Assembly (NCBI GenBank): GCA_043718025.1
Contig: JAYSWN010000060.1
Coordinates: 1-37,170, forward strand
Direction of reading: 5' to 3'
Origin: Pseudomonadota bacterium
GTDB lineage: Bacteria > Bdellovibrionota > FAC87 > UBA2466
DNA: 37,170 bases
Part shown: in pieces, positions 15,829 to 30,155 of the stretch
How positions within the stretch are numbered: the stretch's first letter is position 1
Layout: each line of letters starts with the position of its first letter
Notes under the pieces: generated by a model
Told to the model about the DNA's origin: nothing
Seen by the model: only the letters and a program-made list of their open reading frames with translations
The model's database searches: none
Program-made: the position numbers and the translations under genes

Positions 15829-17079
15829 ATGGAGAGGGCGCAAAGGTTCTTCTTTAAAGGGTTGGGCATCGAGAATTTAGTCTTTCGCGTAGCGTTGTAT
15901 TTGACGCGATGGTTAGAGAAGAATTCGTTTCGAAAATTCGACCTTTTGCGACACGAAGGTTTAAAAAGGGGGGGTAGTGAGGTAGTGGCCCCCCTTTTAA
16001 CTTTGCAACCTGAGTCATTTAAAAAAGAAAGCCTGGAAACGCCTTATAGTAAAGGCTCTTCAGCCGACGTGCCGAATCAGTCGTTTGCCGCGTTCCGTCA
16101 AACTCAAAAGAAGTTTTTATTGCCCGGTTGGGCCGAAGAGATTCAACCCTTTTTAGCCAATCAGTTGAGTCGTCACACCCGCGTTGCGTACGAAGCAGAC
16201 CTGCGTCAGTTTTTTCACTTCTTAGAAGGCAAAATACCGGTCGAAAGTCTGGATCTCTTGCGGCCAGAACACGTTATTTTGTTTCGTAAGTATTTGGAGG
16301 AGGGGCGTTTGCACGGTGGTCGGCCTTTGGAGAAGGCCACGATCAATCGTAAGCTCGCCGTGGTAAAGAGCTTCTTAAATTGGTTGTGCGCCAATGATGT
16401 TTTAGAGAAAAATCCGGCCCGCTTGGTGAAGGGCTTTCCGCAGAGCCAAGAGTCTGACCTTAAAGGGTTGTCTGACGAAGAGGCCGCTAAGATTCTTCGC
16501 CTGCCGGATGCCAACAAGGCGTCGGGGGCTCTCCATCTGGCCATTCTGCACGTGCTGTTATATCTGGGTTTGCGCAAGGGCGAGCTGATTAGTCTAAAAA
16601 TGGGAGACTTAGATGAGGAGAGGGGGGTGCCAGTGCTGCGGGTACGGGGAAAAGGGCACAAAGTCCGTATTCTTCCGCTCACCGCAAAAGTGCGAGAGGC
16701 GCTCGAGCACTATTTTTATGCTTGCCGCAGGGATCGCAGCGCCAAAGAAGAGCCGCTGTTTATTCCCACTAGAAACCCCCGCACAAAAACCCTTTTAAAG
16801 AGCTTAAATCCCCACGCCATTACCTATTTGGTGGTGCGCTACGCCCGCAAGGCCGGCGTGCTCAAAAATATTTCGCCGCACTCATGTCGCGCCACCTGCA
16901 TCTCCAATGCGTTGGATAAAAAAGCAACGCATCGCGCGGTGCAGAGCCTGGCGGGCTGGTCAACTCCACTGATGATTCAACGTTACGATAAGCGTCGCGA
17001 AGATCTGAAGCATTCGGCGGCCTTTATTATTGATTATGAAATTGCTGCCGATGCCCCGCCGGAAACGGTCACGGGCTAA
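15829..17079 (+). CDS. Tyrosine recombinase/integrase (Xer-like); true start probably downstream (GTG 15985 or 16069)
   Basis: Core-binding domain HTRVAYEADLRQF...ATINRKLAVVKSFLNWL; catalytic R (GLRKGEL), K (GKGHK), HxxR (HSCR), W (LAGW), Y (QRYD). Confidence 0.92.
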   Translation: MERAQRFFFKGLGIENLVFRVALYLTRWLEKNSFRKFDLLRHEGLKRGGSEVVAPLLTLQPESFKKESLETPYSKGSSADVPNQSFAAFRQTQKKFLLPGWAEEIQPFLANQLSRHTRVAYEADLRQFFHFLEGKIPVESLDLLRPEHVILFRKYLEEGRLHGGRPLEKATINRKLAVVKSFLNWLCANDVLEKNPARLVKGFPQSQESDLKGLSDEEAAKILRLPDANKASGALHLAILHVLLYLGLRKGELISLKMGDLDEERGVPVLRVRGKGHKVRILPLTAKVREALEHYFYACRRDRSAKEEPLFIPTRNPRTKTLLKSLNPHAITYLVVRYARKAGVLKNISPHSCRATCISNALDKKATHRAVQSLAGWSTPLMIQRYDKRREDLKHSAAFIIDYEIAADAPPETVTG

Positions 17080-18084: not shown

Positions 18085-19605
18085 ATGAACCCACCTAAGC
18101 TTTTTGCTTGGTCACTGCTACTTTGGTTTTTTTTTTCGGCGACCGCTTTCGGCAGATTCGATAATTGCAAATTAGAAACTTTGGTAGATCGGCCCACCGC
18201 TACCCCTGACGAAACCGCATTAATTCAAGAGGGGGCTAAGGTTTTTAAGGTGATAGACGATATGATGGCGGATGGAGTTGCGGCCCTTCCGGCGGGAGGC
18301 AAAGCCCTTAGCATTCCCTCGGCCCACCGCCAGGCTATCATCCGACGATTTGTCGCGGCGTACCTGGATGGCGCCAAAAATAATCCCAAAGACTTTATCG
18401 CCGGTGGAAATGTTGGCCACATGCGGGATCACTTAGAGCTATTCGTACGGCATAAAAAATATCTCGCGCAACAGGGCTTCGATGAAATGTCTTTTCTCTT
18501 AGCGGTGGTGGCTCACGACACGGGCAAGGCTCTCCTCGATAGCGCTATCAATTCGTACTTGGTAGATAAAACAAATGCCCAGATCCCGCGCACGGCATTT
18601 CTCATGCAGCGCGTGCTAAGCCATGAATACCACTCAATCGCTAATGTTCCTAAAATCGTTACAGAGTCGCTAAAGAGAATGGGATTGGATCCGGACACTC
18701 CGGAGGGAAAAGCGCTCGTCGTCAAGTATTCGGGCGAGATCATCGAAGCCATTCGCCTGCACAATGGCGTTGGCATCGCTGGCAACCTAAAGAGTCAGTA
18801 CCCGAGCCTAAACGAGACAGAGCTCGAGCAAGTGCGCAAGGCTTGGTGGGCGAGCTTCAACAAAGCCTTTGCCGAGACCACGGGTTCTCGTTTGGCGCAG
18901 TATGGAGAAAGTGAAGACGCTCCAGTCACGCCGATTGGCCAAGTCTTAAACCTGTTTGATCGCATTACGCTCACCACCGCTAAAGCACCCTGGAAGTTGG
19001 GCACCCAGAACGCCGGATCGATGCCCTTTGGCACTTTTTGGTTGAAAAGTACGTTTGTGGATTCGGCCATCGATAATGACGTTCTTGTGTTAGCTCAGGG
19101 TGAAAAAGTGGTGAGGGGGTTCAGCGGAAAGAGTGAGTCTGAATGGGCCGCGCTGCCCTTCAGCGAGCGACGCAAATTGATCGAAGGAAATCCACTGGTC
19201 GTTGATGGACTTGCTTTAAATACAAACCTTCGTGCCCTGGGCCAAAAAATAATCATCATGAACCAGAAGGAAGTGTTGCAAAGGAAATTCGCGGTGCCCG
19301 AAAACGAAATGCCCATTTCTGCAGCCATGAAATTGAAAGAGGAGGCGGGACCGGCGGCTCAGTACCTATACTGGATAGCTCCCGCCGAATCAGGCACAAA
19401 TTACCGAGTGATTGCCAAAGAAGGGAGTTCGCCCCGCCTAGAAAAGTGGACCGGTCAGCGATGGCAAGAGACGCCGGCTACGCCCGGGCTCAACGAAAGG
19501 ACTCGCAAACCCGGTGACTTTATTGAAAATGACTTTAGAACCCCCACCCACTTATTGATGGCCGTAGTCCGCAGCGCCGGCGCCTGGAAGGGCACCCCGC
19601 CGTAA
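18085..19605 (+). CDS. Exported protein with HD-domain-like motifs
   Basis: Signal peptide ending ATAFG; GHMRDH, VVAHDTGK, SHEYHS, IRLHNG, LFDRI. Confidence 0.7.
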   Translation: MNPPKLFAWSLLLWFFFSATAFGRFDNCKLETLVDRPTATPDETALIQEGAKVFKVIDDMMADGVAALPAGGKALSIPSAHRQAIIRRFVAAYLDGAKNNPKDFIAGGNVGHMRDHLELFVRHKKYLAQQGFDEMSFLLAVVAHDTGKALLDSAINSYLVDKTNAQIPRTAFLMQRVLSHEYHSIANVPKIVTESLKRMGLDPDTPEGKALVVKYSGEIIEAIRLHNGVGIAGNLKSQYPSLNETELEQVRKAWWASFNKAFAETTGSRLAQYGESEDAPVTPIGQVLNLFDRITLTTAKAPWKLGTQNAGSMPFGTFWLKSTFVDSAIDNDVLVLAQGEKVVRGFSGKSESEWAALPFSERRKLIEGNPLVVDGLALNTNLRALGQKIIIMNQKEVLQRKFAVPENEMPISAAMKLKEEAGPAAQYLYWIAPAESGTNYRVIAKEGSSPRLEKWTGQRWQETPATPGLNERTRKPGDFIENDFRTPTHLLMAVVRSAGAWKGTPP

Positions 19606-19613
19606 AGCGCCCG

Positions 19614-20549
19614 TTGATCCGGCCGATTGATTTATGGTACCCATGGGCGTCGGTAGCACGCGAGGGGCACCTGGGATCACTGTCTACATTACTGTTTATA
19701 TTCACTTTTTTATTCAATGCCGCAGCCTTGTCGGTAACCAAGACCTGCGCCCAAAGGCTTGATTCGGCGTGGAACGCTTCGGCTGGGCTGTTGACCATCG
19801 CCTATACCGATAAGGCCATCTTCTCCCTCAATTTAGACGAAGCAGAGGGCACCTGGCAGAGGCAACAGACCAAATTTCCGGTGGAGATTGAAAAGCTTCG
19901 CGTACTGCAAACTTCGGCGCTTCCGTTTCAGCTGAGCGGTTTGGTGGCCGCCGTCGGAAAAGAAGATGCCGGGGGAGTTTGGGTTGGCTCACTCTTATTC
20001 CCCGACGTTGAAAAAATAAAATTCTCGGAGAGCGTGGTCGATGTTGCTTGGCTAAAAGTCTCAACCGATCGCTACCGCCTTTATGTTTTAACCCGTTCCG
20101 CACTCTTTACGCTGAATTGCCTCGAAAAAAATGGGAAGCCGCAGGTAGATAAAAATCCTGTTCTCGTGCACACGTTTTCTGCCGGCGTCGGAGTGCATTC
20201 CTGGGATCGAGTATTCCCCGTTGCCAATGACGAGTTTTATCTCGCTTCAGAAACCGGTAACCTTGGCACCGTCGATGCGGGAGGGGTGCGTAGCGAAAAA
20301 TTTGCCGACTGGGTTCATGAAATGAGAATGGGTAGGGTAAATGATTCCATTTACCTCTGCGGAGTTTTTACCAAAGATAAAATCAAGAGTCTTGATGGCT
20401 GTTTTCGCTACGACTCCAGCCGCGGACAGTGGCAACCCAGTGAGACCCCGACTTCGCTGTTGCGTCCGTTACCCCCCGTTGGCTTTTTCGAGAACCTCAT
20501 TGAGCCTTCCTACCCATTGCGTGTTTTGATGGGGCGCGGCGGATCGTGA
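19614..20549 (+). CDS. Hypothetical exported beta-rich protein
   Basis: 311-aa ORF co-oriented with its neighbours; hydrophobic N-terminal segment; start uncertain. Confidence 0.6.
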   Translation: MIRPIDLWYPWASVAREGHLGSLSTLLFIFTFLFNAAALSVTKTCAQRLDSAWNASAGLLTIAYTDKAIFSLNLDEAEGTWQRQQTKFPVEIEKLRVLQTSALPFQLSGLVAAVGKEDAGGVWVGSLLFPDVEKIKFSESVVDVAWLKVSTDRYRLYVLTRSALFTLNCLEKNGKPQVDKNPVLVHTFSAGVGVHSWDRVFPVANDEFYLASETGNLGTVDAGGVRSEKFADWVHEMRMGRVNDSIYLCGVFTKDKIKSLDGCFRYDSSRGQWQPSETPTSLLRPLPPVGFFENLIEPSYPLRVLMGRGGS

Positions 20550-20562
20550 TAAGATACCGCTC

Positions 20563-21366
20563 ATGCTCGCACGAAATTCTACTCAACTTCGTCCCTTAGT
20601 CATTCTCAGCTTTTGCGTTGGGGGAATTTTGGTGGGCATTTTGGGCTGGTGGTTTTTTAGCTCTTCTAGCCTTTACTGGATTGCCCAAGGGTTAGGGGCG
20701 GTGGAGGGGAAGGCCGCTACCAATTCACTGGAGGCCTTCAAAGAGAGCTACAAGAAGGGTTTTCGTGTATTTGAGATAGATTTACGGCTCACTAAAGACG
20801 ACGAGGTTTGCGCCAGCGCAGAGGAAGCGGCGATGGCAACCGACAAGAAGAAGTTTTTGGCCACTAAGGTGATGGAGAAGTACGAACCGCTCTGTTTGGA
20901 GGGGCTGACGCGGCTCTTGAAGGAGTATCCTGAGGCCTTTTTTGTGCTGGACGTGAACCCTACCAAAGATCCAAACGAGACTTACCGACGCATCTATCAA
21001 AAACTATTTCGCGCCTGGTCAGAAACCACCGAGTTTTGGACTAGAGTGTTTCCCCAGATCTACCAAGAGACAGACCTAGGCTTTCTCAAAGGTTTCTATC
21101 GCTTTCATTCGGTGATTTACAACGTCACCCGTACCAAATCAACCGACGACGCGCTGGTGATGTTTGTAGCGAAGAGCCCCGAAGTCTCTGCCGTTGCCAT
21201 GAGTAAAACGATGTATTCCTCTACCATCGCTAAAGAGGCGCGCCGTGAAAAAAGACAGGTTTACGTGATTGGTGTGAATCAGCTAGCTGAGTCGAAAGCC
21301 TTCATTGCAAAAGGGGCCACGGGTTTTTTCACCGACACCCTCAATCCCCTATCCCAAGTTGAATAG
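20563..21366 (+). CDS. Membrane-anchored glycerophosphodiester phosphodiesterase (GDPD)-fold protein, catalytic His residues apparently absent
   Basis: TNSLEAF...GFRVFEIDLRLTKD...GATGFFTD; IAQG in place of IAH(R/A)G. Confidence 0.78.
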   Translation: MLARNSTQLRPLVILSFCVGGILVGILGWWFFSSSSLYWIAQGLGAVEGKAATNSLEAFKESYKKGFRVFEIDLRLTKDDEVCASAEEAAMATDKKKFLATKVMEKYEPLCLEGLTRLLKEYPEAFFVLDVNPTKDPNETYRRIYQKLFRAWSETTEFWTRVFPQIYQETDLGFLKGFYRFHSVIYNVTRTKSTDDALVMFVAKSPEVSAVAMSKTMYSSTIAKEARREKRQVYVIGVNQLAESKAFIAKGATGFFTDTLNPLSQVE

Positions 21367-21379
21367 AGTGAGTTCCACG

Positions 21380-22756
21380 TTAATGCGCTAAACGTTTAAA
21401 ACCTTGGTAGGCCCATTTGGCGAAACGAAAAGGGGCGTTGTCTTTGCCGATGTGCGTCTTAAAAAAGTCTTTGGCCAAGTCCTCACGTCGTTTGTACCAC
21501 AGCCGACGTGAGCGCTTTTCGTAGGTACGAATATAGGCGGCCACCTCAGTTTTAGTTTTGGCGCGTCCGTTGTCGGCAAACTTGCACACGAAGCCGGTAA
21601 AATAGGGATGCAAACTTACGGCGGGCCAGTCGCCGTGCAAAGTGGTCTTCATGAAATTTCCGATCAGCATGTCATCAAAAACCTCGTATTCAATTGCGGT
21701 CATCAAGGAATGGCGTGGGGCCGAAAAAGTGATTCCACGTGAATGCTGTGCTCGATTGATGTCGATAAAGTTGTCTCGCCCTCCCACTTTTAAGTTGATG
21801 AACCCAATGTGGTCGGCCAGCGATTCTACGGCCTTAAAATAGGCCGCGGCCGTAGCTAAGTCCGTTTTTTCTAACTCGTCGCTCCAGTTATCGCCAAATT
21901 TTTCTGGTTCAAAAACGGTGTGTGGATTTTCTGGCGGATTTATTTTCTCGTACTTATCGTTAACGCAATCGTAGCGCAGAAACGCGGGCAGTAAGGTGCA
22001 TGAGTTGGAAACAAAACCATTGGCGTACTCGGAAAGCCCCGCAGTATAGGCGTCGGCCCATAGGCTATCGCTTCTTTGGTAGCGGTGCATGGAACTTGAG
22101 GGGATAAAATACTTCACCCCCCATTTTTCGCACGCCTCGGCCACGGCCGCTCCAATCGGCGCTTTTTTGGCTGCCTCGGGCGGTAGAAACTTACCTTGTT
22201 CATCGAAAAAATTATTCATGTCGGCGTCGCCGTAGCCCGACAAACAGGTCAAAAATGAGATCGGGTATTTGGCGATGAGGCGTTTTACAAACCAACCCCA
22301 TCCATTCTCACCGCAGTCGTTAGTGTTTGCGACCAGGCGACCATTAATATCTAAAAGGAGAATGGCATCTTGCCCCAGATCGGCAATGCACATCACTTTC
22401 ACACGTTCTGAAATTTGCACCCACTCGCGGCACTTAAGAATATGAACGTCGAAGCCTTCTTTTTTGAGATCGTTGTAGATGCGCCGTCCGACGTGGTCGG
22501 GGATTAAGATCTTTTTTCCTTTAAACAGCGGAAGCGACTCTGCGTTGATATGGTCAGGATGACCGTGTGAAAACCAAACCGTGGGGCTTTGCAGAATGGC
22601 CTGTCGTTGCGCTTCAGGAATGGCGTGGGATAGGCGCCAGCTGCCGAAATAGGCCGATCCTTGGATCCAGGGGTCGGTAACTAGTACCGGATTTTTATCG
22701 TAAGCGATGATCGTGGCATTGCCGATGGTGTCGAAACCGCAGTCGCTAGATATCAT
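21380..22756 (-). CDS. MBL-fold metallo-hydrolase (UlaG/CMP-Neu5Ac hydroxylase-like)
   Basis: GNA, TDPWIQGSAYFGSW, WFSHGHPDH, NTNDC; start at the ATG 22756 after GAGG. Confidence 0.82.
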   Translation of the reverse strand: MISSDCGFDTIGNATIIAYDKNPVLVTDPWIQGSAYFGSWRLSHAIPEAQRQAILQSPTVWFSHGHPDHINAESLPLFKGKKILIPDHVGRRIYNDLKKEGFDVHILKCREWVQISERVKVMCIADLGQDAILLLDINGRLVANTNDCGENGWGWFVKRLIAKYPISFLTCLSGYGDADMNNFFDEQGKFLPPEAAKKAPIGAAVAEACEKWGVKYFIPSSSMHRYQRSDSLWADAYTAGLSEYANGFVSNSCTLLPAFLRYDCVNDKYEKINPPENPHTVFEPEKFGDNWSDELEKTDLATAAAYFKAVESLADHIGFINLKVGGRDNFIDINRAQHSRGITFSAPRHSLMTAIEYEVFDDMLIGNFMKTTLHGDWPAVSLHPYFTGFVCKFADNGRAKTKTEVAAYIRTYEKRSRRLWYKRREDLAKDFFKTHIGKDNAPFRFAKWAYQGFKRLAH

Positions 22757-22818
22757 GATGAGCCTCGTTCCGAGAATGATATCGCTCCTGGTGTCTATTC
22801 TCAAACTGGGTGGTCAAA

Positions 22819-23223
22819 TTAGGAAGTTTCGGCCAGGCATTTTCTGATCGCCGCTGGCAAACCGCCCATAATCTCATCCTTCGACAAAGCGTCCGTCGCT
22901 CCTGCAGTGATGAGTTGTTCCGGGGTAATGCCCGCCGCCTCAAAATCGCTCGAAATCACGATGACGTGAGTGCGTACAAATTGTTTTTTGATTTGACGCA
23001 TTAATTCGTGTCCATTCATGCCGGGCATGCAGAAATCGGTAACCACGACATCGGCGGGCACTTCTTTCAAGGCTTCTAAGGCCTCTACTCCACCGTTGGC
23101 GGCACGTACAGTTTGTTTAAACTCCAACTCAAGAATGAACTTAATCGATTGGCGAGAAAGCGGATCGTCATCGACGACCAAGATATTCAAATAGTTTTTG
23201 GGTTCAGGGGATCTTGTCTCCAT
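22819..23223 (-). CDS. Single-domain response regulator receiver
   Basis: ILVVDDD, VVTDFCMPGMNG, VIVIS, GATDALSK. Confidence 0.92.
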   Translation of the reverse strand: METRSPEPKNYLNILVVDDDPLSRQSIKFILELEFKQTVRAANGGVEALEALKEVPADVVVTDFCMPGMNGHELMRQIKKQFVRTHVIVISSDFEAAGITPEQLITAGATDALSKDEIMGGLPAAIRKCLAETS

Positions 23224-23301
23224 GTTTTGGCTCCTTTAAGCCATAAACATGTTCCTTTTGTCGCCCGCCCTCGACCGAACCAATCGATCCGGTCATCAAA
23301 T

Positions 23302-24450
23302 TTAGGCCTTAGATTCTGCGGAGGAGGTCAAAAGCCTGTCCCGATACGCCGAAGGAGTGCTGTGGTTCACTTTCTTGAATACTTCATTAAAAACCGATTT
23401 CGATTTGAAGCCGCTCTCCATGGCCACCCCTAAAAGGTTTAGGTGAGACTTTTTGGGGTCAACCAAAATTGATTCCGCCGTTCGAATACGGTGGTGGTTA
23501 ACCAGATCGTAAAAGGTCGTGTTCATCCCCCGATTAAGCACTTCAGAGGCGCGGTACGGTTTGACTTGAATCGCTGCCGCGAGATCGGAAAGACGAAGAT
23601 CGGGATCAAGGTGGGGCGATTCCTTTTCGAACCAGAGCCGTAGACATTTCACCAATTTTTCTAACTCGTCCGGGCCAAGCTTTGATCCCCCGGTCTCACT
23701 TAAAATCCCTTCGGATTCGACATCACTATTCTCCGGCACTTCCAGTTTAATCTGCGCCGCAAAAATGGGCGATACAATCAGGGAGAACAGAGCTAAGGCC
23801 ATCAGCGAAAAGAGCAATGCCACGGGCAATATTTTCCAAACCGGAACGGAGGGGCCAGTCAGAACGTCTAGGCAGTTGATGAGAAAGAGCGTGGAGGAGA
23901 TAAACAGAAGCAGACGCAGCCACTTCAAGTGGAGAGCGGTCAGGTTGGAAACATGCTCTTTTGTTCGGCGAGTAAAGTCGCCGACGAGGCGCCAGGCTGC
24001 AAATAAATAGGGGACCGTGATTAAAGTCTTTATCGTCAACCGGGCGAATCGTTCCGTATCGAGGGTCGGTCCTGGCCGAAAGAACGCCTCTCCCCCCCAC
24101 GTTCTAATCGACAAAAGCCAAGCTGAGCCAAACAGAAAAGGCACAAGGTGCCAGAGATGGCGACGGCTAAGGCAAAAATTCGGGGTAGTGAGTGCCTCAA
24201 AGTAAAGGTAGACAAGACTGACTTCCAAGAGCCCAAACGGAAACGCGACGCCAATCAAAAAAGGATGCGCAAAGATGGCTCCTGTGCTTCTAAGTAAAAG
24301 AAGACAATGCTGAAATAACCCACAGAGAATGCCTGCCGCTAAAAGCCGATTGGCAACCGACCGTTCGCGCGAGAACAAAAGGGCCAGGATCAACAATAGC
24401 CCGAAGACTTCGGTAAAATGGGCCTCGCCGGTAAGGATGGACAGCAGCAT
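23302..24450 (-). CDS. Membrane-anchored AraC family regulator
   Basis: Multiple N-terminal TMs; C-terminal LDPDLRLSDLA...SEVLN...FYDLVN...VAMESGFKSKSVFNEVFKK..TPSAYR. Confidence 0.92.
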   Translation of the reverse strand: MLLSILTGEAHFTEVFGLLLILALLFSRERSVANRLLAAGILCGLFQHCLLLLRSTGAIFAHPFLIGVAFPFGLLEVSLVYLYFEALTTPNFCLSRRHLWHLVPFLFGSAWLLSIRTWGGEAFFRPGPTLDTERFARLTIKTLITVPYLFAAWRLVGDFTRRTKEHVSNLTALHLKWLRLLLFISSTLFLINCLDVLTGPSVPVWKILPVALLFSLMALALFSLIVSPIFAAQIKLEVPENSDVESEGILSETGGSKLGPDELEKLVKCLRLWFEKESPHLDPDLRLSDLAAAIQVKPYRASEVLNRGMNTTFYDLVNHHRIRTAESILVDPKKSHLNLLGVAMESGFKSKSVFNEVFKKVNHSTPSAYRDRLLTSSAESKA

Positions 24451-24556
24451 TGCGCGTCATTCTATAGTCAGTGTCCAATTGTGGCAAAGGGGGCTGACAA
24501 GCTTTTGCGAAGCCTGTTTTTTCTGGCATGATAAGGCTCATCCTCAGGAAAAGTTA

Positions 24557-25522
24557 ATGCCGCTACCGTGGATCCGCAGCTTATTCATTGCCCTGGCCCT
24601 ACACCTTTCGGTCTTTGCGCTGGCAAACGGGGTTGGAAGCTGCCCTATATACTTTGGAGCGCTGCTGTCTCGTCCGCCGGTATCGGATCGCGATCTTTTT
24701 GAAATCGCTTCCCAATTTAAAGGCGAGCACGAAGGAAAGGCTCCTGCCTTCGATGGGGTCTTTCCCCCGGTATTTGTCCTCTACTTTAGTCCCGAGCAAG
24801 CCAAGGATTTGCGAGTGGAATTTCAAAACGGCAAGTTGATTCCGAAACCAGATAGCGAACTCCATAAAGCAATGAAAAAAGAGAGTCAGTTGCTAGTCGT
24901 GCAATCGGCCGACATGACCACCTATCTTAGCAAGCTGGAGAAAGGGAAAATTCACCACTCTTCCTTTTTGGGAGGGGCGCCGGTACGCTTTGCCGGAGAA
25001 GCTCACGGTAAATTTACCGAGCGCATTGGTTTTGAAATAGAAGTGCTTACCAATCGCACCGGGCATTACCTGGTTACACCGGGCGCCATGAAGCGAGCTC
25101 TCATTCATTTCAATAAAAATGGAGTTCACGTTTCCGACGTAAAAATTGACGGTGAGGTGAGTTCGGTCATCGTCAGCGAAGCTGATTTCCTCCATGCGGT
25201 TTCTGATGATTGCGCCTCGCAGATTCAAGCAATTGAGCAACTCATTTTGTTTGCGCCCCGTGAGGAGACTCGCGCCTTGATGCGCGACAATTTAGTGGTG
25301 CAACAGGTGTGGAACTTAGTGGCCGCACGCGCTTTGTGGAACGAAGCGGTCAACGGCAAGACCGCGGACGTACGGGCTGGCCATGAGTTTGATCTGCAGG
25401 ACTACTTATCCGAGGCAAAAAAGAAAGACCCAAAACTGTATAAGGAAGGGATTGAGAAGCTAAAACTCTCAATTTCCAATGAACAAGAGAGGCAGAAATT
25501 TGAACGGCTGATCCCAAAATAG
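24557..25522 (+). CDS. Exported protein with HHSSFL-G/AGE/N-(S/T)GHY (IQM-like) domain
   Basis: Signal peptide from the ATG at 24557; IHHSSFLGGAPVRFAGE...LTNRTGHY. Confidence 0.65.
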   Translation: MPLPWIRSLFIALALHLSVFALANGVGSCPIYFGALLSRPPVSDRDLFEIASQFKGEHEGKAPAFDGVFPPVFVLYFSPEQAKDLRVEFQNGKLIPKPDSELHKAMKKESQLLVVQSADMTTYLSKLEKGKIHHSSFLGGAPVRFAGEAHGKFTERIGFEIEVLTNRTGHYLVTPGAMKRALIHFNKNGVHVSDVKIDGEVSSVIVSEADFLHAVSDDCASQIQAIEQLILFAPREETRALMRDNLVVQQVWNLVAARALWNEAVNGKTADVRAGHEFDLQDYLSEAKKKDPKLYKEGIEKLKLSISNEQERQKFERLIPK

Positions 25523-25710
25523 CCGAACCAAAGCGCGGCCATTCTGGGTTACGGCTCTTACCGTTAGGAAATAGGCGAGGAGGGTTACGCCGCTCTTTGA
25601 TCAACTATTTTGTCGATAAGGTGATTGATTTAGGGCGGTTAGCGCTGCCAGTGCGGTTTGAGTGATACATTCCTATTTCTAATTTTTCTTACTCTTACTA
25701 GAATACTCCG

Positions 25711-26529
25711 GTGAACAAAAAGTGGCCCATCCTTTGCGTTTTGCCATGGCTAATTTGCTTAGCCGTTTTCGGCGCCAAGAAACCTAAGACGCTCACGGCA
25801 CCTAGGAACCCGGTTGATAGTTGTGTTACAAATCTTTTTTTGATGGGCACCGGTGAGGTCCAACAACCTTTTTTCCTTCCAAAACAGACGTGGCGGCGGG
25901 TTTCGGGAATTCCCCAATTGGGCGCGGGGGTTTCCGAACACTATTTGGCCGCCTTTGAGTCCACCTCGCCGACTGGGAATATAGTTTGCAAAATCGTTCC
26001 CCTTTCCGTTAGTGAACCCTCAGCCGAAGCCAATCAAATCAGAATTAGTACCATCGCTGCGAATAATGAAAAGTTTCGGGCGGGGGGTTTTTCCACAGGG
26101 CTGGTTGGATTTATCGATAAAGGGGCTTTGGCCGTTGAAGTTGCAAAGAATCCCGTCCATTTCCCTTCTTTCCCCGCCGAGGATGCGGCCTTCGGAATAG
26201 CCTTCCAAAAAATCCCGGGCCTTTGGGCCTACACCCAGAACTCAAAGTTGGTTCCCAGTTATTTCAAAAACTGGTCAAAGGCGAAGCTCAATCGGGTAAT
26301 CAGGGGCCTTGATCAGTTTGAAGGCCTTTGTCGGACGCACGGCTTATGGGTCACCTCTCCCCAGTTCGGAATTACGCCCGGTGGGCAATTGGTTCCTCTC
26401 CACATTGATCGATATGAAGAAGCGAATAATCGAGAGTTAGACCTTACCGTTCAGAGAACGCAGCTGAAGGAGCTATGGGAACAGCAGAAAAAAACGGGGC
26501 CTCCTAGCGACGGCGCTTCTGATTCGTAA
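25711..26529 (+). CDS. Exported kinase-like fold protein, probable pseudokinase
   Basis: Signal peptide; LGAGVSE, VCKIV, SPQF, LHIDRY; paralogous to 26504..27430. Confidence 0.6.
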   Translation: MNKKWPILCVLPWLICLAVFGAKKPKTLTAPRNPVDSCVTNLFLMGTGEVQQPFFLPKQTWRRVSGIPQLGAGVSEHYLAAFESTSPTGNIVCKIVPLSVSEPSAEANQIRISTIAANNEKFRAGGFSTGLVGFIDKGALAVEVAKNPVHFPSFPAEDAAFGIAFQKIPGLWAYTQNSKLVPSYFKNWSKAKLNRVIRGLDQFEGLCRTHGLWVTSPQFGITPGGQLVPLHIDRYEEANNRELDLTVQRTQLKELWEQQKKTGPPSDGASDS

Positions 26530-27430
26530 TTTGAGAATATTCCGCATCGGAATATTTTTTTCCTGAATTTTTTTCCCAAATCAAAACCAACCGGTCTACC
26601 TCACCGTTTAAATGAATGGCCTCTTTATCATTATCACTTCTCCTAAAACGGTACATGTCGAGATCGCCGAATTGAATTAGTACCTCGCCAGATTTGTTTT
26701 GACTGATGAAGAGCTGCGCGTCGGACGCCACAATTTTTAAGTCGTGGAGCTTAGATTCCATCACCTTAATGCGACGAAGAACCGTCGTGAGTTTTTCATG
26801 GCTCCAATCGGCGACAAAATCGGGGGCAACCTCTGGCCTGCTACGTGTCATGTTCCAAGCGCCGCTCATGTTCTCCATTAAAACTCCAACCGTGACGGTC
26901 GCCGGAATAATTTGGCCATGCTTCTCATTCAAATCCCCATTCAACTGTTTCATTTCGGGGGTTAAGACTACGCCGTAGAGTTTAGGGGCGTACCCCAGTT
27001 CACCTAAAAAAGCATGAATTAGCACGTAGTCTTCAAAGGCTTGGTTGTTTGTGTTTTTCCCGTCGAACGTGTCGATCTCGTAATTTAATTTTTCAACTTC
27101 GAAAGCGGTGGCTAGGGATCGCTTTAAAACTACGTTGCGGCCAAAATGGCGAGTGGCAACCTGATAGACCCCCGAGTTAGAGGCGCCGCGGTCTGGGGTA
27201 TCTAACATGTTGAGAAAGGTAATTCCCTCGCTGAGGTCAACTTCATTGGCCAAAAGGATTTTTCCTTTGACGAACTCTTGCGCTTTTTCGCGACGCTTTA
27301 ATAAAAGGCGGTAAGGCGTTTCTGCACGATAGGCCAGGTGAACCAGAACACCCTGACACACAATCCAGGTAGGCTTTGCCCAGGCGATGGTTGAGCAGGC
27401 AATCAATAAAAAGAGCGATAGATTTTTCAA
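26504..27430 (-). CDS. Exported atypical protein kinase-like protein
   Basis: Signal peptide (TTG 27430); RGASNSGVY, VVLKR, APKLYG, VLMEN, SDAQL, FGDLD. Confidence 0.65.
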   Translation of the reverse strand: MKNLSLFLLIACSTIAWAKPTWIVCQGVLVHLAYRAETPYRLLLKRREKAQEFVKGKILLANEVDLSEGITFLNMLDTPDRGASNSGVYQVATRHFGRNVVLKRSLATAFEVEKLNYEIDTFDGKNTNNQAFEDYVLIHAFLGELGYAPKLYGVVLTPEMKQLNGDLNEKHGQIIPATVTVGVLMENMSGAWNMTRSRPEVAPDFVADWSHEKLTTVLRRIKVMESKLHDLKIVASDAQLFISQNKSGEVLIQFGDLDMYRFRRSDNDKEAIHLNGEVDRLVLIWEKNSGKKYSDAEYSQITNQKRRR

Positions 27431-27551: not shown

Positions 27552-28598
27552 TTAAACGGTAACCGTAGGGAACCACCACGGCCCTCTCCTAGGCTGTTTA
27601 CAGCCTGCACAAAGTGGTATCGAATCTGCCTTTCCCGAAAGGTGGATCTGACGCAGCCGTTTTCGCTCCATGCTTTGCCACACGTCGGTTAGGGAGATTT
27701 CGCCAATTTTTCCCAGCTTCGCTTTTCCATTCCAGTCATCACAACAAAGGGCGACGGTTCCGTCCGATAGTACCGGCAGCTGGTTCCATAAATAGTAACA
27801 AGGCGTTTTGGTCCATGACTCTTCGTGGCGGCTACCGCTCACGCTGCCAATACGAGACACTAGGCCGGTCAGGCCCACGTGATCGGCAACTCCCTTCCAC
27901 TTTTTCTCAAATAATGTGGTTTCGTGTCTGTTTTGTTCCATCACGATCATAAACACCCCGACGAAAGGGCGCTTTAGCTCTTTTTCATCGCGCTCGCGAA
28001 TCAGCCCCCGCACATTGCTTTCAACGTCTTCCAGTTTTAGATGGCGGCGAATCGCTTCAAAGGTAGCGGCCGTGGCACCGTCGATGGTGACATTAACTAC
28101 GTCCACGCCATGCTTAAGGTACGCCGCACGCAACACGGCGTTCATTCTCATCGCATTGGTATTGACTACGATCTTCACCGATTTGCTTTTTTGGCGGATG
28201 TAAGCGAGATACGCCTCATTTTCTTTTAAGACCGAGATCTCTCCGTAACCATTGAGCACCAATTTGGGGACACCCATTGAAATCGCTTCATCTACGATTT
28301 TTCTAAACAGATCAAAGTTCATTCCCTCCTGTTTGCGACTCATTGACCTTCGGGGGCACATAATGCAATCCGCATCGCACTGGCTGGTCACCTCAATGTC
28401 GACCTGCTCAGGCCGCTGAAAACACTCTTGGAGGCTCGATTTACGAAACATCTTCGCCACCACCGATCCACGCAGTGTTTCTTTGAGAGCAATGTCCCAG
28501 TGAATTATCTTGGCGCGGACACGAGGAGAAAGGAGAGAGGCGATAGCTTTTCGTATCACAAAGGTCCTCCGAGGAATTAAAGCGCTTTGCGGGCACAA
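27552..28598 (-). CDS. Radical SAM / SPASM (twitch) domain protein
   Basis: CDADCIMC, GYGE, PCYYLW...DGTVALCCDDW...C.GC; start may lie slightly downstream. Confidence 0.93.
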   Translation of the reverse strand: MCPQSALIPRRTFVIRKAIASLLSPRVRAKIIHWDIALKETLRGSVVAKMFRKSSLQECFQRPEQVDIEVTSQCDADCIMCPRRSMSRKQEGMNFDLFRKIVDEAISMGVPKLVLNGYGEISVLKENEAYLAYIRQKSKSVKIVVNTNAMRMNAVLRAAYLKHGVDVVNVTIDGATAATFEAIRRHLKLEDVESNVRGLIRERDEKELKRPFVGVFMIVMEQNRHETTLFEKKWKGVADHVGLTGLVSRIGSVSGSRHEESWTKTPCYYLWNQLPVLSDGTVALCCDDWNGKAKLGKIGEISLTDVWQSMERKRLRQIHLSGKADSIPLCAGCKQPRRGPWWFPTVTV

Positions 28599-29302: not shown

Positions 29303-29752
29303 CTGAAGATTTTAACGTAAACGAACTTTCTACACACAATTTTTTTCTACCGCTGGAAGGGGGAATGAGACGGGGCAATAATTTCTGACTCGGAGCTTAA
29401 ATATATGCCTCCCGTAGCCGGTATGGACCGCGGTCGCCGTTGGAGACCAGCACGTCTAGACAACGTCGGAGTGCTTGAGACTTTCCAATAAAAGAGGTGA
29501 TTTTCCTGATCGTTTGGGAGGCGACGAAATAGTATTGTTTACCTCTGCTGCTCGCGTCAGCGAAGCCGGCCTAAACGGGCGGTTTCGGAGGCAACCGCAA
29601 ACTTCCGCCAACCGCGAAAAATCGTTTCCTCACATGGTATTGAGGCAGCCCTCTCACCTAAGGTGGGATCTGGGCCACGGCATTTCAGCCTTCGCCGATG
29701 CGATAGAGGAAAATCCTCCAGGGCGAGTCTCGGCGTTCGAGCACTTTGAGCA

Positions 29753-29873
29753 GCAGTTGATTCCATAAATAGTAACAAGGCGTTTTGGTCCATGACTCTT
29801 CGTGGCGCTGCCGCTCACGCTTCCAATACGAGACACTAGGCCGGTCAGGCCCACGTGATCGGCCACTCCCTTC
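29753..29873 (-). pseudogene. 121-bp partial copy of the radical SAM gene (27776..27897)
   Basis: Direct repeat of 27776..27897 with 5 substitutions and a 1-bp deletion. Confidence 0.92.
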
Positions 29874-30155
29874 GCCACCGCTGTCACCAAGCGCTAAAAG
29901 GAGCGATTCCCAAATATTCACAGGAAAAAAGGCTAACCGCGCTAGTACCATTCACAAAAAAGACTCACTTGAATTGCAAAATCACTACCCTAGAACCGTA
30001 CTTTTCGGTTGCAGCGTAATTGTCCCCATTACACCGGACGAGCCATTGCTTTTCGGGCTACAAAGTCGAGTGGATTGCCTCTTGCGAATAGCGCGGCGCT
30101 CTGTAGCTCTGAACATCAGCCGAATGGGAGACTGGCACCTTTTTTTCAGTGCAAC

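Follow-up and report, generated by a model that had tools for sequence, protein, structure and literature searches.

Why does a bacterium attach export signals to enzymes of cytoplasmic type, and what does a cysteine shortly behind such a signal do? Both questions are raised by a 37,170-nucleotide stretch of DNA (the window; contig JAYSWN010000060.1 of assembly GCA_043718025.1, C190 in our numbering) from an uncultured member of the Bdellovibrionota. An initial annotation had pointed to five genes, named here by their start positions, whose products share a Sec-type signal peptide, a cysteine motif of about C-x3-[LF]-x2-[LM] and an HD, 'IQM-like' or kinase payload, and had proposed that the motif is a sorting or tethering tag of effectors delivered into prey. 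All five peptides are present, with the cysteine at Cys28 (18085), Cys45 (19614), Cys29 (24557), Cys38 (25711) and Cys25 (27430), and by our heuristic the N-terminus is a convincing Sec/signal peptidase I (SPI) type in four of the five, that of 19614 being weak. We conclude that the motif is almost certainly a portable tag of about 8–10 residues, in which the cysteine opens a predicted amphipathic helix behind a predicted Sec signal, and that it probably has a shared sorting or tethering function. The genes and their tags are the following:

18085..19605, forward strand: signal peptide, cysteine tag and HD-superfamily phosphohydrolase, 506 amino acids
18166..18192, forward strand: cysteine tag of 18085 (the codon of Cys28 and the 8 that follow), invariant C28 column in alignment A1
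19614..20549, forward strand: beta-rich protein whose hydrophobic stretch is followed by C-x3-L, a doubtful member with uncertain start, four cysteines and no family
24557..25522, forward strand: signal peptide, cysteine tag and conserved HSS...AG...N.SGHY domain, called 'IQM-like' in the initial annotation
24641..24667, forward strand: cysteine tag of 24557 (Cys29, C-x3-F-x2-L), aligned in 19 of the 20 rows of alignment A5
25711..26529, forward strand: signal peptide, cysteine tag and kinase-like paralog of 27430
25822..25848, forward strand: cysteine tag of 25711 (Cys38, C-x3-L-x2-M)
26504..27430, reverse strand: signal peptide, cysteine tag and a likely protein-kinase-like fold with Gly loop, Lys, D-x-Q and DLD, 308 amino acids
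27332..27358, reverse strand: cysteine tag of 27430 (Cys25, C-x3-L-x2-L)

The motif was searched for in the whole source genome (G000; 4.14 Mb, 234 contigs, 92% complete), in which 3699 genes were called with a hexamer model. Signal peptides are calls of a heuristic for Sec/SPI-type N-termini, which demands a non-negative n-region and which picked up some plainly cytoplasmic or membrane proteins as well. The strict set comprises 627 SPI-type proteins; proteins whose h-region ends in a lipobox had been excluded before motif counting, and cysteines at mature residues 1–25 (early) were compared with those beyond residue 40 (late). These early-versus-late controls and fixed patterns were chosen after a first self-trained position-specific scoring matrix had collapsed onto its seed (L at +4). 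In the strict set L or F stands at +4 after 68 of 200 early cysteines compared with 145 of 1247 late ones (p=6e-14). None of the anchors Ser, Thr, Ala, Asn, Asp and Gly showed an early enrichment in this set, and of the offsets 1–9 from the cysteine only +4 stands out. For C-x3-[LF] a looser protein set gave 82/276 early against 197/1642 late, and similar positions in non-exported proteins gave 115/667 against 880/5953; a relaxed helix pattern separated early from late cysteines less well (65/200 early, 213/1247 late). The shared motif thus stands well above background in the genome as a whole, and the enrichment is specific for the cysteine and for +4.

The resulting motif set holds 76 proteins, 62 of them in the strict subset. 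A hydrophobic residue at +7, a position that played no part in their selection, is found in 0.49 of the 76 motif sites and in 0.24 of 201 background sites (p=1e-4), and proline never occurs at +3, so that an amphipathic helix fits and the hydrophobic +7 of the initial annotation is independently supported. No residue ahead of the cysteine is conserved, position -2 being mostly V, L, A or P, and the consensus C-x3-[LF]-x2-hydrophobic contains no conserved arginine. True members also include variants without L or F at +4, such as 18085.

The predicted SPI site lies 2–30 residues before the cysteine in the 62 strict motif proteins (heuristic sites). If the signal peptides were uncleaved anchors, the enzymes would stay on the cytoplasmic side of the producer's inner membrane with a membrane-proximal cysteine helix, and there would be no ATP paradox; a heuristic that flagged some cytoplasmic and membrane proteins leaves room for this. 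We consider it very unlikely, as an AxA-type cleavage site is present in 62 of the 76 motif proteins, length (median 22 residues, controls 21) and hydrophobicity are like those of control signal peptides, the non-negative n-region favours a topology with the C-terminus outside, and the payloads are poorer in cysteine than cytoplasmic proteins and paralogs. The signal peptides appear to be real, by the heuristic calls and by their conservation in homologs. Twin-arginine motifs are not enriched (1/62 motif proteins, 9/565 controls), which sets the tagged proteins apart from substrates of the twin-arginine translocation pathway.

One conserved cysteine near the mature N-terminus of unrelated Sec substrates recalls the lipoprotein signal read by Lgt, LspA and Lnt. 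Surface and transferred proteins often follow such a logic, and lipoprotein toxins such as SitA of Myxococcus move between cells. A non-canonical modification of the cysteine, either S-acylation or a second cleavage with N-terminal acylation, could anchor the enzymes to vesicles or to the outer membrane, and the predicted helix would then be the recognition site of the modifying enzyme. However, a lipobox [LVI][ASTVI][GAS] directly precedes the motif cysteine in 0 of the 76 proteins (lipobox proteins having been removed first), and the cysteine is not mature residue +1 but lies well behind an SPI-type site, with no conserved residue before it. The conserved information follows the cysteine (+4, +7), and true lipobox cysteines have C-x3-[LF] in only 9 of 182 cases. 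Two members of the 24557 family (L244, L263) appear to carry a lipobox-like cysteine and, further on, a separate tag cysteine. We therefore regard this modification as unlikely.

The cysteine is mostly without a partner in its chain. Among the 114 exported proteins of the strict set with exactly one mature cysteine, 34 have it in the first 25 residues, where 10.6 would be expected, and a second cysteine is absent in 20 of the 62 strict motif proteins. Cysteine makes up 0.41% of tagged payloads, 0.71% of other exported and 1.08% of non-exported proteins; a tagged pyruvate kinase has one further cysteine, its untagged paralog six. Such cysteine-poor payloads fit proteins that cross an oxidising compartment and retain a single free thiol. 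Ordinary intradomain disulfides, which the initial annotation had named as a possible refutation, are unlikely, since the tag cysteine is often the sole mature cysteine and an intrachain partner is usually missing. A chance pattern or a structural disulfide of secreted domains could draw on two observations: about 23 of the 68 motif matches are expected by chance, leaving some 45 true members, and one HD sub-clade (P0003, P0005) has three cysteines within the tag region. This explanation is already largely refuted and highly improbable, given the p value reached with residue and offset controls, the lone cysteine in these 20 proteins and in 9 of 11 counted HD proteins with a signal, and the conservation of the cysteine in three unrelated families of the window.

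The first of these families is that of 18085, which had been ranked lowest among the five but turned out to be the best supported, although it does lack L or F at +4. Cys28 is its only cysteine and is invariant in the alignment. In the AlphaFold model (predicted local distance difference test, pLDDT, 89) a short helix covers residues 27–34 and the HD fold begins near residue 76. A fold search gave YpgQ as best match (Z 9.7, middling for a helical protein; root mean square deviation 3.3, 182 residues aligned), followed by phosphodiesterases and other HD hydrolases, and Foldseek with the same model returned nothing at E<=0.001. The ligands H112, H144, D145, H226 and D292 are invariant in 20 sequences and give the order H...HD...H...D on an all-helical fold, so that the HD payload is supported by fold and ligands.

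A representative library contained 11 non-self matches to the HD protein. Eight are full-length stand-alone proteins (22–35% identical) and all eight keep signal and cysteine; in two others the domain is part of a longer, untagged multi-domain protein, and the last is a fragment. Three closer homologs include two with signal and cysteine, the third starting internally. In 33 genomes of the family, 9 of 13 non-self matches have both features, and the other four are a 2180-amino-acid exported giant without tag and three distant forms without signal, two of which are the halves of one split gene. Long multi-domain proteins that contain the HD domain (P0004, P0006 and the giant of G022) have no tag, which suggests that the tag and such long proteins are alternative modes of delivery. 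The giant (L199 and L305, G022:C27) has Gly-rich hydrophobic helices, an internal 18085-type HD domain and a toxin-type look. P0004 has 688 amino acids and ends in an 18085-type HD domain; its residues 14–80 match the XopV/AopV effector family weakly (E 2e-4, far below the cut-off), and BLASTP found no link between its N-terminal domain and 24557. An HD homolog is also present in a Bdellovibrionaceae bacterium.

The second family comprises 27430, in which Cys25 is the only mature cysteine, and its paralog 25711. The kinase motifs of both line up in alignment A3 and make a kinase fold likely, as had been proposed. Profile and structure libraries did not confirm it: no Pfam match was obtained, the best match in the PDB was a choline kinase at E ~0.8, and a single-sequence model of 27430 reached a pLDDT of 30. 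In the Atlas, one row at 0.95 carries the name putative Ser/Thr kinase, with APH in 11% of members. The paralog 25711 may be a pseudokinase, as its putative catalytic Asp is missing. Signal and cysteine are kept in 5 of 5 kinase-like homologs from three families. In G149 the tagged kinase-like gene (L344:251-898) lies just downstream of an apparent TadE-type pseudopilin gene, and another gene with signal and cysteine converges on it.

The third family, that of 24557, has matches in 38 of 201 genomes. Among 30 loci listed, 24 encode a signal peptide and 22 of these an early cysteine, in 10 families of the phylum; the other six are four long open reading frames (ORFs) starting outside the locus, one gene cut by a contig end and one without signal. 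In four large ORFs among these loci the domain sits late. Alignment A5, with 20 of the 24 signal-bearing members (two long and two near-duplicate proteins omitted), has the cysteine column in place at a mean column identity of only 21%. The domain itself is conserved; 20 searched members gave no relevant Pfam, NCBIfam or PDB match, and no profile match confirmed a resemblance to plant IQM proteins. A word-indexed homolog search with 24557 returned only the protein itself. The homolog in G007 (L213) adjoins a recombinase-like gene. Tagged neighbours of kinase-like and 24557 homologs were seen in G002 and G001, encoding what we take by eye to be a GNAT-like protein (L210:2239-2946) and a protein with a ParB-like motif (L214:1935-3155).

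The fifth protein of the initial list, 19614, should probably be dropped. It begins with TTG 20 residues ahead of the hydrophobic stretch, has three cysteines besides Cys45 and matches no Pfam or NCBIfam family. Together with tagged orthologs of the pyruvate kinase and the Clp protein in G002, the three families described above show that the tag is phylum-wide and is kept where the sequence on either side is not, with differences in abundance or exact consensus. Samples from outgroups were too small for a comparison (14 and 20 signal-peptide proteins, with 0/2 and 0/6 early cysteines in a motif).

Comparison with paralogs in the source genome shows that the tag lies outside the payload fold and is separable from the enzyme, as it does in the HD protein. 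Residue 47 of the tagged pyruvate kinase corresponds in the alignment to residue 8 of its untagged housekeeping copy, and residue 37 of a tagged ATP-grasp protein to residue 2 of its paralog. A ClpB-like protein, with both Walker A and B motifs intact, aligns from its residue 38 only to residue 158 of ClpB, so that signal and tag replace the N-domain. The pyruvate kinase gene is located as follows:

G000:C225:12104-13720 (L129): second pyruvate kinase with signal peptide and cysteine tag, the housekeeping copy also being present in the genome

To see what else is carried behind the tag, 64 motif proteins and four near-motif proteins (68 in total) were scanned with Pfam; three motif proteins of the window and nine that by eye are likely false signal peptides or lipoproteins had been left out of the 76. 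Domains that depend on ATP, S-adenosylmethionine (SAM) or acetyl-CoA were found in 7 of the 64 and in none of 108 controls, which were strict signal-peptide proteins from 20 signal-peptide-rich stretches (p=8e-4, or 1.5e-3 with the nine omitted proteins scored as misses). The seven are the ClpB-like double AAA+ protein, two SF2 helicases, pyruvate kinase, an ATP-grasp ligase, a methyltransferase and a GNAT; NCBIfam added a second methyltransferase, and one of the near-motif proteins is a GNAT. In a second control set of 56 proteins, mostly neighbours of tagged genes, two cofactor-domain matches occurred, one in an ABC1 kinase for which no signal peptide was called, the other in an AMP-binding gene whose start is doubtful. 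Other tagged payloads have NUDIX, EEP nuclease and dehydratase domains. The claim of cytoplasm-type payloads behind the motif is thus borne out as an enrichment of cofactor-dependent domains, and many of the payloads look like dismantling or metabolic enzymes more than toxins. In one locus (G000:C145:4549-8029, L109) a tagged AhpD-like gene overlaps the following gene, which encodes an ABC1 atypical kinase without called signal peptide.

How such enzymes might be used is suggested by Bdellovibrio bacteriovorus, in which, according to the accessible part of a 2026 review (PMC13689555), the prey cytoplasmic membrane stays intact during the degradation of the DNA, RNA and protein that it encloses, so that some delivery route is needed. 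That the tag sorts exported enzymes towards the prey cytoplasm is close to an even call, leaning slightly against. The tagged enzyme would be exported by Sec and cleaved by signal peptidase I, and the tag helix would dock on a carrier or an envelope machine. In the oxidising periplasm, for which G000 encodes DsbB, the free thiol could form a mixed disulfide with the carrier. Once in the prey cytoplasm the disulfide would be reduced, setting the enzyme free in a compartment that contains ATP, SAM and acetyl-CoA; this capture and release we put forward tentatively. The cargo (helicases, the ClpB-like unfoldase without N-domain, HD, NUDIX and EEP hydrolases, kinases and GNATs) might then dismantle or reprogram the prey contents, and the tagged pyruvate kinase could regenerate ATP there. 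Taken as a whole, a hitherto undescribed two-step delivery in Bdellovibrionota, with Sec and a cysteine-helix tag, a carrier disulfide and release in the prey cytoplasm without need for immunity genes, is possible but doubtful. The absence of evident immunity genes noted initially agrees weakly with 14 HD matches with varying neighbours, the neighbours of HD and kinase-like homologs differing from locus to locus, but small genes were not searched systematically. Of the interpretation given in the initial annotation, the part in which exported enzymes of cytoplasmic type share a tag for sorting or tethering is supported, while delivery into prey is only inferred.

Several observations weigh against such a delivery. 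That the source organism is a predator is itself inferred from the phylum. A Sec signal peptide alone suffices in B. bacteriovorus to bring a reporter into the supernatant, as described in the accessible part of PMC12622784, so that a tag is not needed merely for leaving the cell. The surroundings of tagged genes revealed no carrier, protease or modifying enzyme, although a modifying enzyme was not sought systematically; the carrier search beside them turned up only common families, for example response regulators, and no paralog family of exported proteins recurs there. Tagged genes do not cluster significantly (14 observed, mean 9.2, reached in 70 of 500 shuffles). No Pfam family was assigned to 40 of the 68 scanned proteins, and the motif set also holds two S41 peptidases, a vWA protein, a GDSL lipase and an alpha/beta hydrolase, besides the third or so of matches that is expected by chance. 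For 19614 only one homolog, a fragmentary one, was found among 37 other genomes. C-x3-[LF] is not enriched in samples from G007 (5/27, 600 kb), G045 (2/16) and G058 (2/13, 400 kb each), and hence either the large expansion is lineage-specific or the consensus drifts. Finally, two signal-bearing Clp ATPase paralogs and one ATP-grasp paralog of G000 have no tag, which is thus not required for every exported ATPase:

G000:C232:17703-20303 and G000:C36:1451-6115: untagged Clp-type AAA+ proteins with signal peptides and altered Walker motifs
G000 C135:8813-10276: untagged signal-bearing ATP-grasp paralog

The lone conserved cysteine without intrachain partner could also be a covalent clip, by which tagged proteins are disulfide-linked to each other or to a scaffold on the surface or on vesicles and act on leaked prey cytoplasm with a brief supply of cofactors. 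Tagged genes are sometimes adjacent (24557-27430 in the window; L210, L214), the tag also occurs on envelope-type hydrolases, and no injection machine was found: the 92%-complete genome has five secretins and ten ATPase matches of type II secretion system (T2SS), type IV pilus (T4P) or Tad type, but no match to a type VI secretion sheath subunit, a phage-type sheath or VirB4. On the other hand, tagged genes are mostly scattered singletons (61 of the 76 without paralog) that neither cluster significantly nor form a one-machine operon, and the prey membrane remains intact in B. bacteriovorus (PMC13689555, accessible part), though the source lineage may feed differently. We therefore regard a clip as a serious but rather unlikely alternative to sorting towards the prey cytoplasm.

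The tag can be compared with several known systems. Polymorphic toxin systems carry payload modules in long exported proteins with adjacent immunity genes, and HD and 24557-type domains likewise occur inside very large multi-domain exported proteins. In contrast, the tagged proteins are stand-alone, no conserved downstream immunity gene was seen in the examined loci and several payloads are of housekeeping type. The Plasmodium PEXEL and oomycete RXLR sequences are host-targeting motifs behind a signal peptide. They resemble the tag in being short, degenerate and outside the effector domain, in their occurrence on many unrelated, fast-evolving effectors including kinases and in their lineage expansion; the tag differs in being bacterial, based on cysteine, without Arg-x-Leu and known from sequence alone. 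RXLR-DEER is mentioned in the accessible part of PMC3582587, which describes a Y/F/WxC motif with its cysteine within <=30 residues of signal cleavage on a large share of candidate effectors of powdery mildew. Most of these, as far as this part of the source goes, have a C-terminal partner cysteine and many are RNase-like, whereas the tagged folds are unrelated and the cysteine is often alone; moreover, the tag does not have the aromatic residue at -2. A precedent for carriage by mixed disulfide to a periplasmic machine comes from the type IX secretion (T9SS) and gliding machinery of Bacteroidota, where PorG and SprF are disulfide-bonded to PorK/GldK (PMC12635249, accessible part). There, however, the same part of the source describes a machine component with cysteines in its C-terminal tail, in another phylum, while here dozens of cargo enzymes share an N-terminal tag.

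No paper describing the tag was found, most subscription papers and bioRxiv supplements lying outside the literature covered. It is not described in the accessible parts of PMC12419801, PMC2797640, PMC12622784, PMC12428579, PMC13689555, PMC7925074, PMC12546842, PMC3582587 and PMC12635249, and the word 'cysteine' does not occur in those of PMC12622784, PMC13689555, PMC7925074 and PMC12546842. Secretion in B. bacteriovorus was called largely unexplored in 2025 (PMC12622784, accessible part). At stake is the question how predators like Bdellovibrio get their enzymes past an intact inner membrane to the contents of the prey. The tag would explain the signal peptides on ATP-dependent enzymes in these genomes, and as it is short, a list of candidate prey-directed enzymes could be predicted from sequence. 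It might also be possible to use it for protein delivery between bacteria. Even if a rival reading is right, bacteria would have in this tag a new envelope signal, based on cysteine, for sorting or tethering.

Some minor features of the genome and the window were also observed. Away from the main Tad, T2SS and T4P loci, a short secretin of 348 amino acids lies with a pilus-type ATPase (G000:C206:1520-3546). In the window a tyrosine recombinase gene (15829-17079, forward strand) is found about 1 kb upstream of the HD gene 18085, and positions 29685-29951 (reverse strand) repeat part of the C-terminal region of a radical-SAM-like ORF (27552-28598, reverse strand), probably as a partial duplication. 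A housekeeping gene has its closest relatives in Pseudobdellovibrionaceae or other Bdellovibrionota. The Lon protease of the window shows 72% identity to Lon of a Bdellovibrionota bacterium.

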